This document shows, piece after piece, positions 1,902-60,248 of a DNA stretch of 64,000 nucleotides (positions are counted from its first letter, which is position 1; each line of letters starts with the position of its first letter). The notes below the pieces were generated by a model. That model was not told where the DNA came from, ran no database searches, and saw only the letters and a program-made list of their open reading frames with translations. Source of the DNA: Escherichia phage vB_EcoM-RPN242. The stretch lies in sequence record OL656110.1; one strand, 5' to 3'. The position numbers and the translations under genes are program-made.

Positions 1902-2467
1902 TTACGTTCTCCGTAGAATTTAACGAACGGTTCCCAACCATCAAATGGATTGAGGAATTCGTAGTCCACTTTCATTTGGTCAATGAAAGCCTCTATATCG
2001 TCCTCTATGATACCAGCACGGTCGGCCTTTGAAATACGGGTGATAGGACATTTCGTACTCAGCGCCCATTCATATTCCTGAGGGGTACGCAGATCGCTCA
2101 CGATATAATGGACGTGGGGGTTCTGCTCTACCAGAGGAAGCTGGAAGCGCTTGAAGAATGCCAGGAACAGATCGGGTTGTACGTAACGCAAGCCCGTATC
2201 GCTGCCTAGATGAAGCCAGATCTGCCGTGGAGTTAAGCCCTTGGGGTTATCAGGGTGGGTGTAAGGAACGTCCTTCACGGCATCCTCTACCTCCGCTGGG
2301 AGCCATGGGTAGATGTAGTTGGCTACACGGCGCAGTTCATCAGAGAAAGAAAGGCGCTGTATGTCCATATCACCCTGTAAGTGGTGATAACTGATCAGGG
2401 ACTCCAAACAGAAGTCCTTACCGGAGCGTTTGCGCCCCGTAAAGAATTCAAGATTTGGGTACATCAT
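1898..2467 (-). CDS. deoxynucleoside monophosphate kinase (T4 gp1-like)
   Basis: 189 aa; N-terminal P-loop FTGRKRSGKDF matches T4 gp1 LSGVKRSGKDT; ATGA overlaps on both sides. Confidence 0.7.
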   Translation of the reverse strand: MMYPNLEFFTGRKRSGKDFCLESLISYHHLQGDMDIQRLSFSDELRRVANYIYPWLPAEVEDAVKDVPYTHPDNPKGLTPRQIWLHLGSDTGLRYVQPDLFLAFFKRFQLPLVEQNPHVHYIVSDLRTPQEYEWALSTKCPITRISKADRAGIIEDDIEAFIDQMKVDYEFLNPFDGWEPFVKFYGERK

Positions 2468-3510
2468 ACTACACCTTCCAGGAACTTAGGATCAACGATC
2501 TTGCGGTCAACCGGAGAATGGGTGAGCGCGGTGTTCAAGCCATGATCCTGAATCAGGTCCAGGTTAATGAGCTTTTCGTTCAGTTTGCAGTGCAGACAGT
2601 ACGCCATCTGTACAATCAGGCCGCGATCCGCATCGTATTCCTTCAGGTGGGCGACCACAGTTTCCCAAGGGCTGCCGATATCACAGTGATGAAGCACGCC
2701 AGTGAACAGATTGCGGATATGGTTCTGGTTGGTCACGTTCTTGAAGTGAATCATGGAGTTGATGAACCCAGCTTCTACTTTGGTGTCCTTCGTGATCTTT
2801 CCCAGCTGCTTCTGGCTGACTTCATTGTTGTAGTAATGAAGATTGTTAGAGAATAGCTTGTACTGACCGACATCAACATCCAGCACCCGAGCAATCACTT
2901 CCTGAAGAATAGAGAACTCAATGAAGTTGATTGAACTCATCCCCCACAGAACATCCTGTGAGCGATTGATGACCGTCAGGTTCAGACGACCTTCAACGAT
3001 GGCGAACAACAGAGCCAGGTTACACACCATGTCCTTAGTCTTCGCTTCGCCGCTCTCGCTGAACTTCGCCAGACCAGCATCCGAATCTAGAGCCGGGTCA
3101 TAGATGGTGAGGTACGCCTGGCGAGTGTTTGGGTTCTTGCGCAGGCGGTTAATAACGCTATCCAGCTGGCCATGGGCGTACAGACGCGGACCATAAGCAG
3201 CTCGCCATGTTACCCCATCATCCGAAAAGTTAGCAGCGCGAGGCAATACGCGTGACAGGAACTTTATGTCGTTGCGGCCTGACAACACCCAGAAGGTCTC
3301 GCCGATGGCAGCGATAGCCGATGAGTTGCGACCTTCAATAGAGAGCCAGCGGTCACGGATGTCGGCGACGGTTATGGTCACGCCATCAAGGAAGCGGGTG
3401 CTATCAGTATTGATTTCAGCATTACCAGGATCAGATTCGATCCCGAATTCACGGATAGCCAAGACAGCCTGCTTCAGCATGTCATTGTTGTTAATTGCTT
3501 TGATTTCCAT
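2464..3510 (-). CDS. thymidylate synthase-fold enzyme (ThyA / pyrimidine hydroxymethylase family) with ~100-aa C-terminal extension
   Basis: 348 aa; collinear with ThyA: AAIGETFWVLSG, NPNTRQAYLTIYDP, catalytic-Cys region DMVCNLALLFAIVEGRLNLTVINRSQDVLWG, then VGQYKLFSNNLHYYN; extra C-terminal domain not found in canonical ThyA. Confidence 0.8.
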   Translation of the reverse strand: MEIKAINNNDMLKQAVLAIREFGIESDPGNAEINTDSTRFLDGVTITVADIRDRWLSIEGRNSSAIAAIGETFWVLSGRNDIKFLSRVLPRAANFSDDGVTWRAAYGPRLYAHGQLDSVINRLRKNPNTRQAYLTIYDPALDSDAGLAKFSESGEAKTKDMVCNLALLFAIVEGRLNLTVINRSQDVLWGMSSINFIEFSILQEVIARVLDVDVGQYKLFSNNLHYYNNEVSQKQLGKITKDTKVEAGFINSMIHFKNVTNQNHIRNLFTGVLHHCDIGSPWETVVAHLKEYDADRGLIVQMAYCLHCKLNEKLINLDLIQDHGLNTALTHSPVDRKIVDPKFLEGVV

Positions 3511-12921: not shown

Positions 12922-13218
12922 GGCTTAACTGTAAAATCGGTTAACACGAACTTTCTTTACCTGAAATTGCTATAATGGGCTTGTTCCCGAGTCATTTGTT
13001 GGTGTTTGTCTGTTTTGAATCAGATTGTCAGTAAAATACCATTTTTCAAGGAGTGTTCTGGGGTGTACAGTTATTGCCTCGCCCTTATGCCTCCATGGCA
13101 TTGGAATGGTGCTGCCCGCATAGGGCGGTTTGATGAGCGAAGCGAATAGGATCGAATAAAACAAATAAAATGAACGGAAGCAGAGCTTCCTATAGTATAT
13201 AAGGCAAAATCAGCTGCG

Positions 13219-14944: not shown

Positions 14945-15325
14945 ATGAAAGAGTATAAAGATGTCGATCTGAAGTTCGGCATGCATCCAGTGACCAAAGA
15001 TGTCACCATGAAATCAGGCGTATACGCTGTCTTGCAATCTGTGCGGAATATCGTCATGTCTTCAGTCGGGGACTGGCCCACTTATCCTGGGATCGGCGCG
15101 GGGCTTTATGGGTTGCTGGGTGAAAACACGACACCGACTATCCAGGTAGATGTGAAGAACAAAGTAGAGGACGCCATCGCCCTGTATGAACCCAGAGCAG
15201 AGGTAGAAGAAGTCACGGTGAGTCTGTCAGAGGATTACCATTCTCTGGGCGTGACCATCACATTCTATGTGGTCAACAATCCAGATCCAATAACAGACAC
15301 CGTGTGGTTGAAAAGGACGAATTAG
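14945..15325 (+). CDS. baseplate wedge protein (T4 gp25 / GPW-like)
   Basis: 126 aa; VLQSVRNIVMSSVGDWPTYPGIGAGLYGLLGE matches the gp25 family signature; directly after gp5-like gene. Confidence 0.7.
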   Translation: MKEYKDVDLKFGMHPVTKDVTMKSGVYAVLQSVRNIVMSSVGDWPTYPGIGAGLYGLLGENTTPTIQVDVKNKVEDAIALYEPRAEVEEVTVSLSEDYHSLGVTITFYVVNNPDPITDTVWLKRTN

Positions 15326-23194: not shown

Positions 23195-23340
23195 GATGTA
23201 ATTCCTCATAATGTAGTTGGTTCATTTCACTTTTCATTCGGCGGTGTGTTGCCGCCCTATGTGAACTATAATAGTGCATCATTATTGAAGAGTAAAGTCT
23301 TTTTCAATAATTTTTTAAAATATTTTTGAAGTATTTTAAA

Positions 23341-23361
23341 AGGCCTCATTCGACGAGGCCT
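23341..23361 (-). terminator. hairpin terminator candidate
   Basis: aggcctc-gtcgaat-gaggcct palindrome followed on minus strand by TTTTAAAATAC. Confidence 0.45.
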
Positions 23362-38892: not shown

Positions 38893-39171
38893 TTACTTGC
38901 CGTTGGCAGCGTTCTTCAGACCTTCGCCCACTTTGAATTTCACAACGTTTTTCGCCGCGATCTGAATGGTCTGGCCGTTCAGAGGGTTGCGACCTTCACG
39001 CGCTTCTTGGTGTTTCACTTCGAACGCACCGAAGCCAACCAGCTGTACAGATGCGCCTGCAGCAACTGCAGTTTTAACACCGTCGATAAAGGATGCCACT
39101 ACTTTCTCCGCTTCGCCTTTGGTGATATTCTGGGTCGAAGCAATGTGGGCAACAAATTCAGTACGATTCAT
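38893..39171 (-). CDS. HU/IHF-family DNA-binding protein
   Basis: 92 aa; MNRTEFV ... FGAFEVKHQEAREGRNPLNGQTIQIAAKNVVKFKVGEGLKNA, the HU beta-arm signature. Confidence 0.8.
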   Translation of the reverse strand: MNRTEFVAHIASTQNITKGEAEKVVASFIDGVKTAVAAGASVQLVGFGAFEVKHQEAREGRNPLNGQTIQIAAKNVVKFKVGEGLKNAANGK

Positions 39172-39264
39172 CTGGATTTCTCCGTTGGGTTAATGTTTAC
39201 TTTCATGTTCACTACAAGAGGACTACATCTTACCTAACAAAACATATTGAATAAAGCGAAATTA

Positions 39265-56098: not shown

Positions 56099-56767
56099 TT
56101 ACTCAATCTGTGCGCCGACGAAGTAATTGATCGTCGCGTCGGATGATTGGAAGTTCACCATCTGTAGATCAGCACAGGCACGCAGAGTGTAGTTGCCTTC
56201 GATCATTTTCAGGTTGGCAACATCCAGCGGCATTACGAAGTCCGGCAGCGCGGTTTCGCCCAGCTCAACAGTGTAGTTGTTGGAGTTGTCCAAGGTAGTG
56301 GTGGTTGCAACCAGGCGAGTTTTGCCACCCTGAGCAACCAGGCGCACAGTCTTGTGTCCGAGGGTAGAGCAGGCGCGGGTCAGTTCTTTCATCTTCTCTG
56401 GAGTGATGATCGCTTCAAAGTCAACAGACGGCAGTTCAATGGTGTCAGCCGGGACAACCGTGAGTTCTTTAGCAGAACGCCAGAATTGCAGCTGAGAGCT
56501 TTCGCCTTTCAACAGGATGTAGTCCTGATGGAATTCGGCTTTGGCACCTTTGAAGGAAGGTAGGCGCTGGATGGCCAGAAGTTTGGTCAGGTCCAGAATC
56601 GGGAACTCAAACGGGAAGTCTTCTTCGATCTGCGCCACGGCGATCACAGTAGAAGAATCATTAATACTGCGCAGCATCTTACCCGGTGTCAGAACGATAG
56701 ATGGGTTGATGGTCTCAAAGTTGGCCAGCAACTGAAGTGTACGTTCGGAGAGAGTGATCTCTTGCAT
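56099..56767 (-). CDS. 45: sliding clamp (T4 gp45-like)
   Basis: 222 aa; N-terminal TLQLLANFETINPSIVL parallels T4 gp45 TALLKNFATINSGIML; position upstream of gp44/gp62/regA as in T4. Confidence 0.75.
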   Translation of the reverse strand: MQEITLSERTLQLLANFETINPSIVLTPGKMLRSINDSSTVIAVAQIEEDFPFEFPILDLTKLLAIQRLPSFKGAKAEFHQDYILLKGESSQLQFWRSAKELTVVPADTIELPSVDFEAIITPEKMKELTRACSTLGHKTVRLVAQGGKTRLVATTTTLDNSNNYTVELGETALPDFVMPLDVANLKMIEGNYTLRACADLQMVNFQSSDATINYFVGAQIE

Positions 56768-56900
56768 TTGTATGTATCCTCAAAATATAGTGGGGGTTCA
56801 AGTCATGTTTGACGCAATCTAGTATCGCTGTGTTTTGTTTATAGAACAAGTGGCAAATTGCGCTACGCGTTATTAATAAATGCCTTCGGCATTTATGGAC

Positions 56901-56947
56901 TTTATTAAAGATAATAACCTTTATTAAAGATAATAATCTTTATTAAT
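56901..56947. repeat. tandem palindromic iterons (TTTATTAAAGATAATAA x2 plus partial third copy)
   Basis: Copies at 56901..56917 and 56920..56936 are identical, 19-bp period; each unit is TTATTA-aaga-TAATAA; lies in a 361-bp AT-rich region between divergent genes. Confidence 0.7.
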
Positions 56948-56979
56948 CCTATTCGCTTCGCTCATAAAACAAATACTCG

Positions 56980-57009
56980 TTGTTCGCTAACGCTCACAAC
57001 TCGTATAAT
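56980..57009 (+). promoter_or_regulatory. sigma70-like promoter candidate for plus-strand gene
   Basis: TTGTTC - 18 nt - TATAAT (57004..57009), about 120 nt upstream of ATG at 57129. Confidence 0.35.
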
Positions 57010-57128
57010 ACCACGCCATTGTTCAACAAGAAAGCAGTTTTTATTCAACAGCAAAATTAATTTATTTGGTCTAAACATGCACGCGAAATAATATGTATGT
57101 CATGTTAACCAACACACGAGAGTAATAT

Positions 57129-57500
57129 ATGAAACAGTTCGTAGGTTTATACGCAGTCGGGTGTAGTAAGCCAGACGCCAACCTCACCACAGGTCAATTT
57201 ATCACAGGCACCCCAGTTTATCTGACACAGCTGGCGTCAGACAAGAACTTACCATCGGAACCGCGATTTGTCCCCCTTGGCTTGATGACAGGCCTGAAAG
57301 TTGGTCTGTATGTCGGCGTTGTGACGTTTGAAAACGGCATCGAAGCGAAGGTTCTGCCATTCAAATTGGGTAGTGAACAAATGCTGAAGGATACGATCAG
57401 TGAACACCTGAACTCACAATGTCTGGCTTCTCTGGATAAATTGTTCGGCGTAGTATCTGATGAAGGCGAGGCCACCCCCGCCTATGTGAATCAAGATTAA
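57129..57500 (+). CDS. hypothetical protein (123 aa)
   Basis: Complete plus-strand ORF with ATG start; convergent with uvsW (overlapping stops). Confidence 0.5.
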   Translation: MKQFVGLYAVGCSKPDANLTTGQFITGTPVYLTQLASDKNLPSEPRFVPLGLMTGLKVGLYVGVVTFENGIEAKVLPFKLGSEQMLKDTISEHLNSQCLASLDKLFGVVSDEGEATPAYVNQD

Positions 57501-59005
57501 TCGTGATTACCCAGCGCCACCTTCATGAACTCCACAGGGTGGCGCTCTGCCAGGTAAAACTTGTAACGCTCATGAGAGTGCCTAAGAGCGTGGTTCGTGC
57601 TGGCGTTATACGATGCATCATCCACTAAGTCCCATATCCACGCGACGTCCTTAGAGGAGTGCTGACGCATCAGACGACCCAATGTCTGTATGACGCGGAT
57701 ATATGACTTGCTCGGGTGTGCCAGTACAAGGTGGTGTAGCTTCTTGATCGACACTCCCTGCTGCATTGTCCCGTATGATGCCAACAGGGTGATGTCCTCT
57801 CCATCCTCCATCGCTTTCTGTATGCGGCGGCGGTCTTCGATCTTCACTTCCCCGTTGATGACAAACACGTTGGGCTTGACTGCGCTCAGCATATCATACA
57901 CGACCATCATGTGACCATCAATACGCTCGAACATGATGGCCACGTTTCCTTTCAGATTCAGTGCCATCTTGGCGATCAGTTCGTTGCGGGACTGGTGTGT
58001 AATAAGGTATTCTATTTCCTTGGAATAATCCCCGTCTAGACCAACAGCATCCGCCGGAGTGTGCTTCAGCTGGATCATCTTCACTTTGATGTCAGTGGCG
58101 TACCCGAGATTGATAAGATCGCGAGCCGTGATGATCTTATGGTACGCCCCGAAGTGAGCCACCACCTGAAGCCCGGCAACTTTGGTGTTCGCCAGCGTAC
58201 CTGTAACCCCCAGGCGCTGGTCGGCATAGATGCAGTTGTTCAGGATGTAAGACAGTTTCTCAGACTTGGAGGTGTGCACTTCATCCACCACGATATCACC
58301 GAACTGGTGGAACCATTCCTTCGGCTGGTCTTGAATGCCCTGCCATGTGCTGATGACGATTGGTTTGCTGATCTCCTTTGTCGCGCCCTCAAAAATCAGC
58401 TGGGTGTTAACAACGGGCTTCCAATCACTGCCATGAGCATACTCTTCGAAGTTGTCGTACAGCTGAGTGACTAGGTGGATTGACGGCACCACGATAAGCG
58501 TCTTCAGAGGACTTTCGAGAGCTTCTCTGCGCCGCCTGTAGTACCGCGCCATGACATACAGAATAAAGGACTTACCGGCACTCGTAGCCAGTTCACAGAC
58601 GCATCTGGTTTGACGCATAGCCTTGGCGATGGTGTCGTATTGGTAGTCACGAGTCTCGGCATCGATATATTCGTGATTTTCGGTGCGGATCTTTGGATGC
58701 AGACTGTCGATGAAGTCACGGATTTCTTCATCTGGGATGTCCTGAATGTACTTCAGTGCCGGATCCAGTTCAATGGTGTATCCGTTGTTCTTACAGAACT
58801 TAAATACCTCAAACAGCAGACCGATATCGATTAGACCAGATGACTTGGTAAATAGGCGGACAACCCCGTCCCATTTAGAAAAGGGGTTGGGAACGAAGTT
58901 CGGGTCTTCGAATTTGAAGTAGTCATTAAGTTCTTCCCTGATAGAAAGATCTGCGATGCAACGCATGCGGACTTCGTTAACCTTAACAATCTGAATGTCT
59001 GCCAT
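57497..59005 (-). CDS. uvsW: UvsW-like SF2 DNA/RNA helicase
   Basis: Start at ATG 59005 (MADIQIVKV...); collinear with T4 UvsW: Walker A ELATSAGKSF, DEVH box IVVDEVH, KLHHLVLAHP, QTLGRLMR. Confidence 0.8.
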   Translation of the reverse strand: MADIQIVKVNEVRMRCIADLSIREELNDYFKFEDPNFVPNPFSKWDGVVRLFTKSSGLIDIGLLFEVFKFCKNNGYTIELDPALKYIQDIPDEEIRDFIDSLHPKIRTENHEYIDAETRDYQYDTIAKAMRQTRCVCELATSAGKSFILYVMARYYRRRREALESPLKTLIVVPSIHLVTQLYDNFEEYAHGSDWKPVVNTQLIFEGATKEISKPIVISTWQGIQDQPKEWFHQFGDIVVDEVHTSKSEKLSYILNNCIYADQRLGVTGTLANTKVAGLQVVAHFGAYHKIITARDLINLGYATDIKVKMIQLKHTPADAVGLDGDYSKEIEYLITHQSRNELIAKMALNLKGNVAIMFERIDGHMMVVYDMLSAVKPNVFVINGEVKIEDRRRIQKAMEDGEDITLLASYGTMQQGVSIKKLHHLVLAHPSKSYIRVIQTLGRLMRQHSSKDVAWIWDLVDDASYNASTNHALRHSHERYKFYLAERHPVEFMKVALGNHD

Positions 59006-59033
59006 ACAAAATCTCCCAAGGATTATGGGGTAT

Positions 59034-59780
59034 TTAGTGATCCGGCCAGACTCCGTTTTGTTCTTTATCCATGCGATGATACAGACGAACACGCTCAAAC
59101 ATCTTTGTCAGAATGTCATCACGGTTGAACTCAATGACGGTTGGTAGAGGGGAAGACTCGTTGGCGATCACGTTGATGAGGCGGGTGATCTTGACGCCGA
59201 ACATCTGCTGGAACATGACCGAATATAAGCACAGCTGGATACTGTAATCCTCGATCATGCCCCGCGTCTTCATGGTGTTCGATGTCTTGAAGTCGATGAC
59301 AGCAGGTTTACCCTCATAAACCCCGATAAGGTCTACACGACCTGCAAGACCAAGCACCTCACTATATAATGGGATCTCCTGAGCATAGATCTTTGTCATC
59401 TTGTTCAGGTAAGGGAACAGCTGCTTGAACATGAACATGTATTCGCCAGCCGCTTCCAACACTTCTTTCATTGGGCGGTTCTTTAGATACAGTTCACACG
59501 CAAGGTGCAGCTTCTCCCCTCGGTCAGCACAGCGCATGGTCTCAAGATCAGCGGCCTCTGCGCCCAGCTTCTTCCTCCAAGACTCAAGCCATTCATGATC
59601 TCCAGTGCGTCCCAGCATAGTCGTGACGGATGTCAGTTTTACACCAGACGGTGAAACGTAATGACGACCATTCTCCGTCGTAACACACTCCAGTTCCTTA
59701 TGAGGAAGTTCGTATTGCTGGAATGTGTAATGACGGTTTTCGAAGTCATTCAGCTTGCGTAGATCCTGGAGAGATGCCAT
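59034..59780 (-). CDS. PD-(D/E)xK nuclease family protein (RecB/Cas4-like fold)
   Basis: 248 aa; GRVDLIGVYEGKPAVIDFKTSN ... QLCLY arrangement. Confidence 0.45.
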   Translation of the reverse strand: MASLQDLRKLNDFENRHYTFQQYELPHKELECVTTENGRHYVSPSGVKLTSVTTMLGRTGDHEWLESWRKKLGAEAADLETMRCADRGEKLHLACELYLKNRPMKEVLEAAGEYMFMFKQLFPYLNKMTKIYAQEIPLYSEVLGLAGRVDLIGVYEGKPAVIDFKTSNTMKTRGMIEDYSIQLCLYSVMFQQMFGVKITRLINVIANESSPLPTVIEFNRDDILTKMFERVRLYHRMDKEQNGVWPDH

Positions 59781-59795
59781 TATGTGTGATCCTCG

Positions 59796-60248
59796 TTATA
59801 CACCATCAATATATTTTCTCCACTCAATAGCATTTTTCACTTCGTATCCCAGTTTGTTCAGGCGATCCAAACAAGTCTCTATGAACTTGACTTTTGCTTT
59901 TTGTTCTTGTAACAGAACAGACAACTCCACATAGTCATCGTCTGCTTTGACCCATGTATCTAGGTCAGACTTCAGGGGGCGAACCTTCAGGGGGCGATCT
60001 GCGTAGATGTTAGGGGGTAACTCCCCTGCATAGTAGCGGCGCAGATAGAGATCGATTTGGCGGAAGCGCCCGTTGAGAAATTCAAGATAACGTCCCTCGC
60101 GCAGATAATGCCGCTGTACAGCCATCCAAGAGCGCCCGATTTTCAGTGAGATCTGGTCAAGGTTCATGTCTTCTGGGTCCACTGTGATCAGCGGCTCCAG
60201 TTCGTTCATGATGTCCTCGGTAGCCATTGTCTGTAGTTGTTCTTTCAT
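59796..60248 (-). CDS. uvsY: UvsY-like recombination mediator
   Basis: 150 aa; similarity of the C-terminal half to T4 UvsY and conserved position next to uvsW. Confidence 0.55.
   Translation of the reverse strand: MKEQLQTMATEDIMNELEPLITVDPEDMNLDQISLKIGRSWMAVQRHYLREGRYLEFLNGRFRQIDLYLRRYYAGELPPNIYADRPLKVRPLKSDLDTWVKADDDYVELSVLLQEQKAKVKFIETCLDRLNKLGYEVKNAIEWRKYIDGV

Follow-up and report, generated by a model that had tools for sequence, protein, structure and literature searches.

The window analysed here is a stretch of 64,000 nucleotides from Escherichia phage vB_EcoM-RPN242 (sequence record OL656110.1). According to the records of its relatives, the source phage belongs to the Ackermannviridae, subfamily Aglimvirinae. 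Within the window, an intergenic region of 361 bp separates the sliding clamp gene gp45 on the minus strand from a gene of unknown function on the plus strand, which encodes a protein of 123 amino acids (aa) and is referred to as orf123. The region contains an AT-rich tract with a tandem repeat of palindromic units. A preliminary description of the sequence had noted this divergent layout and the nearby genes uvsW and uvsY, and both were confirmed. The positions of the features are listed in Table 1.

Repeat unit and its copy-number variation

The preliminary description had reported a 17-mer, TTTATTAAAGATAATAA, twice in tandem (56901-56917 and 56920-56936) with a partial third copy, and this arrangement is present as described. 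Each unit contains an inverted repeat with 6-bp arms, TTATTA and TAATAA, separated by AAGA, and the palindrome and the hairpin (stem-loop 1, SL1) that had been placed just upstream of the units were also found there. The true period of the repeat is 19 bp, and the unit consists of CTTTATTAAAGATAATAA followed by C or T. By chance, 0.09 occurrences of the 17-mer are expected per window, and two copies were obtained in 1 of 100 shuffles. TTATTA and TAATAA hexamers are frequent in this part of the sequence, with 7 of the window's 26 falling within 56870-56945 (a 77-bp stretch). The GC content of 56894-56953 is 0.167 compared to 0.49 overall, which is tied for the second-lowest of any 60-bp stretch in the window. 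In the relative ZQ1, whose copy of the 361-bp region is 99.4% identical to that of the window, no other 200-bp stretch of the genome is as AT-rich as the tract (GC content 0.295). The tract is bracketed by two elements capable of forming stem-loops, SL1 and SL2. With a z-score of -1.8, SL1 is a modest hairpin when taken alone. Its stem is retained in Kuttervirus with the loop TGAC, and in Taipeivirus a different AT palindrome occupies this place.

To count the units, a 171-nt query across the tract was run by megablast, which matched 45 Aglimvirinae records, and the number of units was judged from the match lengths. One unit was found in 38 of the 45 records, two units in six and three units in one. 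With one unit, as in Ag3, SKML-39, LIMEstone1, AV101, fGh-Ecl02 and three IMG/VR contigs, 34 nt lie between the hairpin and the next conserved block. This distance is 53 nt with two units (the window, YX22, LHE287, CECAV_050, one IMG/VR contig and one metagenome contig) and 72 nt with three (A221). The two-copy state was observed in six independent GenBank genomes as well as in one IMG/VR and one metagenome contig and is therefore not an assembly artefact.

For a neighbour-joining tree, which recombination might have blurred, the 4-kb flanks were used; they diverge by 1.2-2.7%. Copy number is non-monophyletic on the tree: one-copy AV101 is placed beside two-copy ZQ1, and three-copy A221 beside the two-copy window and YX22. 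One to three units thus occur among phages that are 97-99% identical over 4 kb. The final bases of the successive units also differ, with the patterns C-T, C-C, C-C-T, T and C. Taken together, the tree and the differing unit ends indicate repeated gain and loss of units. One-copy genomes contain two occurrences of the 9-nt direct repeat CTTTATTAA at a distance of 19 bp, one in unit 1 and the other in the partial unit. As CTTTATTAA is already duplicated in the single-copy state, a substrate for slipped-strand mispairing is present. Slipped-strand mispairing or unequal exchange at this sequence would add or remove whole 19-bp units and so give one, two or three of them. Two hallmarks of variable-number tandem repeats (VNTRs) were found, namely whole-unit polymorphism among close genomes and direct repeats that bound the single-copy unit. 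We conclude that the tandem copies arose recently and that their number is unstable; ancestrally, the tract had a single 19-bp unit with the 10-nt partial copy behind it.

The intergenic region was aligned for 12 Ackermannviridae, and a conservation profile was calculated for six lineages. The 361-bp region is kept in 270 of 273 matching phage records. Its DNA identity to Vi01 is 78.7%, and the clamp protein is ~82% identical to Kuttervirus clamps; overall, the region is about as conserved as the adjoining clamp gene. In the profile, conservation is 0.2-0.57 at 56898-56937 compared to 0.83-1.0 in the flanking conserved blocks, in which several 10-mers are invariant. The repeat is the least conserved and most AT-rich part of a strongly conserved 361-bp non-coding region. 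In the flanks, there are 10-nt blocks with 100% conservation across genera whose clamp proteins are ~80% identical. Single-base indels between close relatives indicate that the region is non-coding, and neither a conserved open reading frame (ORF) in the 12-taxon alignment nor an Rfam match was found. A small minus-strand ORF (57079 to ~56963) was rejected as a gene because its frame is broken by single-base indels among close relatives.

Outside the Aglimvirinae the unit is not conserved. It is absent in Klebsiella Taipeivirus and different in Miltonvirus, and Kuttervirus carries another AT-rich sequence that retains just the inverted pair TAATAA(A)...TTTATTA. Both Kuttervirus and Vibrio phage K446 have inverted TAATAA/TTATTA arms at the corresponding position, and the sequence (T/A)TATTA(A/G)TC stands ahead of the next block in all genera of the alignment. 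Even the Vibrio Ackermannviridae, whose clamp is 36% identical, are AT-rich at this position and have a hairpin and TTATTA/TAATAA or ATTAAT motifs there. The Vibrio phages K446 (positions 2155-2494 of the locus) and 207E48.1 (2140-2482) share the order uvsW, small ORF, long intergenic region, gp45, gp44, gp62 and regA. Their intergenic region contains the hairpin TTGATTGC-TTC-GCAATCAA, an AT-only tract of ~65 bp and the palindrome AATAAGAGCTCTTATT, after which two candidate sigma-70-like promoters point toward gp45. The genome-wide search for the 17-mer that had been proposed in the preliminary description was carried out with up to 3 mismatches and gave no further copy, either in the window or in the complete ZQ1 genome (149,115 bp). 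A search of IMG/VR with the bare 17-mer matched more than 100 unrelated AT-rich viral contigs and was set aside as uninformative.

Table 1. Positions of the intergenic features, neighbouring genes and second locus in the window
Feature	Position	Strand	Remarks
Second module copy, upstream of gp5	13133-13190	-	hairpin GGAAGC-TCT-GCTTCC 13190-13176; T-rich tract 13175-13151; 18-mer 13150-13133
HU/IHF-family DNA-binding protein gene	38896-39189	-	Pfam Bac_DNA_binding, E = 7.7e-30
gp45, sliding clamp gene	56099-56767	-	ORF; weak Pfam gp45-slide_C match; annotated as sliding clamp in all relatives
Intergenic region	56768-57128		361 bp, between gp45 (-) and orf123 (+)
gp45 leader with candidate promoter TTGTTC-17-GATACT	56768-56849	-	-35 at 56849-56844, -10 at 56826-56821; 7-8 of 12 consensus positions
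Alternative gp45 promoter candidate GTCAAA-17-TATATT	-10 near 56789	-	7-8 of 12 consensus positions
Palindrome TTATTAATAA	56870-56879		
SL1 hairpin ATAAATGCC-TTC-GGCATTTAT	56876-56896		9 pairs; -9.3 kcal/mol as RNA; z = -1.8
Repeat unit 1 CTTTATTAAAGATAATAAC	56900-56918		sole full unit in 38 of 45 relatives
Repeat unit 2 CTTTATTAAAGATAATAAT	56919-56937		lineage-specific duplicate; gap opposite in Ag3, SKML-39 and LIMEstone1
Partial unit CTTTATTAAT	56938-56947		10 nt; conserved 5' edge of next block
18-mer CCTATTCGCTTCGCTCAT	56948-56965	+	directly after tract; contains SL2 ATTCGC-TTC-GCTCAT (56951-56965)
Candidate sigma-70-like promoter for orf123, TTGTTC-18-TATAAT	56980-57009	+	consensus match
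Conserved non-coding block TTGTTCAACAAGAAAG...TTTGGTCTAAACATG	57019-57079	+	conservation 0.72-1.0 per 10 nt; no Rfam match
orf123 (phrog_4255)	57129-57500	+	ORF; function unknown
uvsW, helicase gene	57497-59098	-	Pfam UvsW_N, ResIII, Helicase_C; converges on orf123 with 4-nt overlap
uvsY	59796-60248	-	

Flanking elements, a second locus and neighbouring genes

On the gp45 side, the hexamers and the 17-nt spacer length of the candidate promoter TTGTTC-17-GATACT are constant in Aglimvirinae, Kuttervirus and Taipeivirus, and the spacer sequence is variable. On the plus strand, TTG(T/C)TC-17/18-TATA(A/T/G)T is found in alignment register in 11 of the 12 taxa. Other AT-rich intergenic stretches of the window are terminator-plus-promoter regions, for example 23258-23357, which carries the Ag3 promoter Porf100. 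Three further promoter assignments were tried and rejected. The first was a phage-specific consensus shared among promoters; no conserved block recurs in the window, and a scan with TTGxxC-N16-18-xAxAxT yielded no site family. The second was a T4-type late promoter upstream of gp45 at TATAAACA, of which only TATA(A/T) is conserved. The third was the 'middle promoter' annotated in LIMEstone1 from the T4 consensus alone, since its two elements stand between 9 and 13 nt apart, depending on the genus, and searches for MotA and AsiA detected no homologue. The genome papers on LIMEstone1 and Ag3 annotate such a consensus-based 'middle promoter' or nothing here, and a genome-reduction paper on phage selz contains nothing on the intergenic region between gp45 and orf123. 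The conserved block at 57019-57079 includes the near-palindrome TTGTTCAACAA, a partial repeat of it, TTATTCAACAG, and TTTGGTCTAAACA. A consensus fold of the plus-strand RNA from SL2 to orf123 is weak (-7.3 kcal/mol) and shows little covariation.

The 18-mer that contains SL2 has one other copy in the window, on the minus strand upstream of gp5, and none of 100 shuffles gave two copies. The whole ZQ1 genome likewise contains exactly two copies. On the motif strand, both loci have the same order of a stem-loop, an AT- or T-rich tract of 23-30 nt and the motif. The consensus of SL2, A(C/T)TCGC-N3-4-GCTC(G/A)T, has the form of an inverted repeat with mismatches. Aglimvirinae carry ATTCGC-TTC-GCTCAT at both loci, Kuttervirus and Taipeivirus carry ACTCGC-(TTC/TAC/TGAA/GTT)-GCTCGT at both, and phage Kevin has TCTCGC-AAAT-GCTCGA at its second locus. 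Across genera and at both loci, the outer two pairs vary on both sides and complementarity is kept. In a covariation test, which was made on related sequences and with a structure derived from the same sequences, 97.9% of cells were paired, five cells were doubly changed and 0 of 500 shuffles reached the score. As judged from these alignments, the covariation suggests that the arms pair, in RNA or in single-stranded DNA, or that one factor recognises both loci.

The second locus is a conserved non-coding region with 277 matching records, flanked by the terminator of the gp26 operon on one side and by gp5 (baseplate hub/lysozyme) on the other. Its hairpin shows a compensatory change to GGATGC/GCATCC in phage 0507-KN2-1. 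An Rfam scan of the locus gave nothing near threshold, and BLAST detected no second module copy in the Vibrio Ackermannviridae. Downstream of the motif, the locus continues with ~200 nt of conserved non-coding sequence (12926-13132, minus strand), which is bounded by the gp26-operon terminator and the late promoter of gp5. The G+C-rich stems of this sequence, among them GCCC...GGGC, GCCT...AGGC and GTCT...AGAC, show compensatory changes, and it may be a structured RNA.

The 4-kb surroundings of the intergenic region are 98-99% identical to those of the Escherichia phages YX22, PC3, PH4, LHE287, A221 and ZQ1, and 94% identical to those of Shigella phage Ag3. Beyond uvsW lie a PD-(D/E)XK nuclease gene and uvsY, and on the far side of gp45 the genes for RegA, gp62 and gp44. 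YX22 has an additional 657-bp ORF between gp44 and gp45 (positions 1018-1674 of its locus) without counterpart in the window, and in LIMEstone1 the HNH endonuclease I-LimI splits uvsW (positions 2212-3343 of its locus). A scan for tRNA genes found none. For the 123-aa protein, a Pfam search returned no domain, including no DNA-binding domain, and its AlphaFold model (predicted local distance difference test score, pLDDT, 79.7) matched no solved structure (best E-value 0.6). Lacking a Pfam domain and a structural match, this protein gives no sign of a repressor encoded next door. Its C-terminal GEATPAYVNQ is invariant, and a conserved (S)LDxLFG motif (CLASLDKLFG) is similar to the C-terminal peptide with which T4 DNA polymerase binds its clamp. 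orf123 stands head-to-head with the clamp gene, and a homologue is named 'clamp loader subunit' in one UniRef entry. Convergent plus/minus gene pairs with a 4-nt overlap occur in two places, orf123/uvsW (57497-57500) and a baseplate wedge gene with a 116-aa ORF (15322-15325). These overlaps leave no space for a terminator, so that read-through must yield antisense RNA over the plus-strand genes.

Interpretation and comparison with known systems

We favour, with moderate confidence, the explanation that the repeat was generated by slippage within the AT-rich spacer of a divergent promoter region, that the spacer is shaped by base composition and that the units are not specific sites. The 361-bp region would then be a divergent control region, with candidate sigma-70-like promoters directed outward to gp45 and orf123. 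The AT-rich tract between these promoters might act through its composition, as upstream DNA that is easily bent or melted, and it could be a loose target of nucleoid proteins such as the HU-like protein of the phage. HU-family proteins mostly bind without sequence specificity. Acting in this way, the tract would not need a fixed number of sequence-specific sites. One additional unit (19 bp) turns the flanks against each other by ~0.8 of a helical turn, and two (38 bp) by ~1.6 turns. Since the phages tolerate the rotation caused by 19 bp, the flanks need no fixed helical register across the tract. The repeat, whose copy number is seen to vary, is a fresh example of a common kind; we infer the promoters and the function of the tract and SL2 from sequence comparison.

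Several observations weigh against this explanation. The promoter candidates match 7-9 of the 12 consensus positions, and the literature searched contains no transcriptome and no mapped transcription starts or promoters for any Ackermannviridae phage. The conservation of the flanks exceeds what ordinary promoters need. A further point is the AT content of the tract, the highest of any 200 bp in ZQ1. The inverted arms in Kuttervirus and K446 leave room for some sequence specificity, and the covarying module of hairpin, T-rich tract and 18-mer at the second locus points to a dedicated cis-element.

A replication origin is a rather unlikely alternative. The AT-rich tract would be the DNA-unwinding element of an origin similar to T4 oriF or oriG, the hairpins and SL2 would mark two origins (between gp45 and uvsW and between gp26 and gp5), and the copy number of the repeat would change only the length of the unwinding element. 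In T4, oriF lies near uvsY and uvsW, and oriE near gene 5. The extreme AT-richness of the tract fits an origin, as does the fact that its sequence varies from the Aglimvirinae to the Vibrio Ackermannviridae while AT-richness is kept. Additionally, the module occurs exactly twice per genome with compensatory changes, and both loci are at local strand switches, adjoining uvsW and gp5, respectively. T4 oriF and oriG consist of a promoter and an A+T-rich unwinding element that tolerates replacement, by heterologous unwinding sequences in the case of oriF, and several T4 origins lie near switches of the transcribed strand (PMC3016281). On the other hand, T4 origins have no common sequence motif (PMC3016281), so that a motif present twice per genome is without T4 precedent. 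No well-conserved promoter leads into the tract: a minus-strand candidate, TTGTGA-17/18-TATTAx, has the essential final T of the -10 hexamer only in Kuttervirus, and the best-conserved promoter-like sites face away from the tract. A search of the six-frame ORFs from ZQ1 with hand-typed MotA and AsiA queries detected no homologue (best E-value 0.37), and with it no sign of the MotA/AsiA-dependent middle-mode promoter of the T4 type. The second locus has a 25-nt T-rich tract and no large AT-rich block. In ZQ1, the cumulative GC skew changes direction at 9.9 kb and at 53.7 kb and shows no inflection at this locus (118.4 kb); as it tracks gene orientation, we discarded it as uninformative for the locus. 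The literature searched contains neither replication mapping nor origins for Ackermannviridae.

Alternatively, the module that occurs twice per genome and co-evolves across genera might be a dedicated cis-element, undescribed as far as the searched literature shows. It might mark replication origins, with the repeat as unwinding element, or be the target of a phage factor that couples expression of the clamp and the baseplate hub. We regard this, too, as a minority possibility.

A role at the RNA level seems improbable. SL1 and the first, U-rich part of the tract might form an intrinsic terminator of a short plus-strand RNA, or the succession of stem-loop, AU-rich tract and stem-loop might be an RNase processing site. 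The short RNA would start at ~56798 from TTGCAT-18-TATAGT and be antisense to the gp45 leader; in both versions, the repeat units would be a passive tail. Consistent with this, a consensus scan picked up a plus-strand site that resembles a terminator, the promoter-like site is in register in 11 taxa, and the hairpin of the second locus has a good U-tract on the motif strand as well as a compensatory change. The pairs of SL2 co-vary as base pairing predicts, and antisense read-through from the convergent overlaps must enter both regions. However, the promoter-like sequence overlaps the gp45 start codon and ribosome-binding region, which makes its conservation uninformative, and no plus-strand gene is annotated upstream of SL1. 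The SL1 stem has only three G-C pairs and is followed by the tail GGACUUUAUU, which makes for a weak terminator. With its 2+2 pairs and 2x2 mismatch, SL2 alone is too weak a structure to fold unless it has a partner, and the absence of an Rfam match and the weak consensus fold of the plus-strand RNA also speak against an RNA element.

The proposal of the preliminary description, taken here to mean that each palindromic 19-bp unit is the site of a sequence-specific dimeric protein and that the tandem units are adjacent cooperative operators or origin iterons, is very improbable, because the tandem is present in just 7 of 45 Aglimvirinae records, its copy number is unstable (one to three at <3% divergence) and it lies in the least conserved part of the region. 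The TTATTA-N4-TAATAA symmetry of each unit, the similar TAATAA(A)-N-(T)TTATTA arms in Kuttervirus and K446, the HU-family protein of the phage and the clustering of half-sites at this tract alone (7 of 54 in the ZQ1 genome) would fit such sites. Against them speak the loss of the unit beyond the Aglimvirinae, the lack of more copies in ZQ1, the matches of the bare 17-mer in unrelated contigs and a period of 19 bp that is not a whole number of helical turns. Iterons are expected as at least three evenly spaced, conserved direct repeats beside an initiator (Rep) gene. Here there are two full copies, in most relatives one, and the neighbours are gp45 and the 123-aa protein gene, neither of which encodes a recognisable DNA-binding protein. 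Operators of a dimeric repressor are expected as conserved palindromes that overlap a core promoter, and the units are poorly conserved and lie 50 bp or more upstream of either candidate -35 element.

The repeat alone is an ordinary slippage polymorphism, and its annotation as iteron or operator is unwarranted. It is mainly useful as a strain marker and as a natural experiment which shows that length and helical phase of the tract are not critical. The surrounding region, non-coding and yet conserved like the adjoining genes over several genera, merits more attention. Ackermannviridae are widely used in biocontrol and therapy. With neither origins nor mapped promoters on record for them in the literature searched, the gp45 and gp5 loci are concrete, testable candidates.

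Among known systems, the repeat shares with slippage VNTRs of intergenic DNA the gain and loss of whole units (one, two or three), the flanking short direct repeats and the AT-rich low complexity. It differs from them in having only one to three copies, in implying no phase-variable phenotype and in its strongly constrained surroundings. AT-rich upstream DNA, either UP-like or curved, is also found at strong sigma-70 promoters such as those of the T4 early type. As there, an AT-rich tract lies behind outward candidate promoters, and composition is conserved over sequence. A classical UP element, however, is located at -40 to -60, whereas the tract is 50-135 bp upstream of the putative -35 elements and is flanked by conserved elements with hairpin potential. 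With origins of the oriF/oriG type, the locus has in common an AT-rich, sequence-tolerant tract by promoter-like sites in a T4-related phage, near uvsW and uvsY. It is set apart from them by the lack of a demonstrated promoter into the tract, of detectable MotA or AsiA and of sequence homology, and the SL2-type motif has no T4 counterpart. Iteron origins, such as lambda ori, the gamma origin of plasmid R6K and T4 oriE with its 12-nt repeats, likewise have a short dyad-symmetric repeat beside AT-rich DNA. Their arrays comprise several even and conserved copies, usually with an initiator nearby, whereas the unit described here is mostly single, unstable and without an evident initiator.

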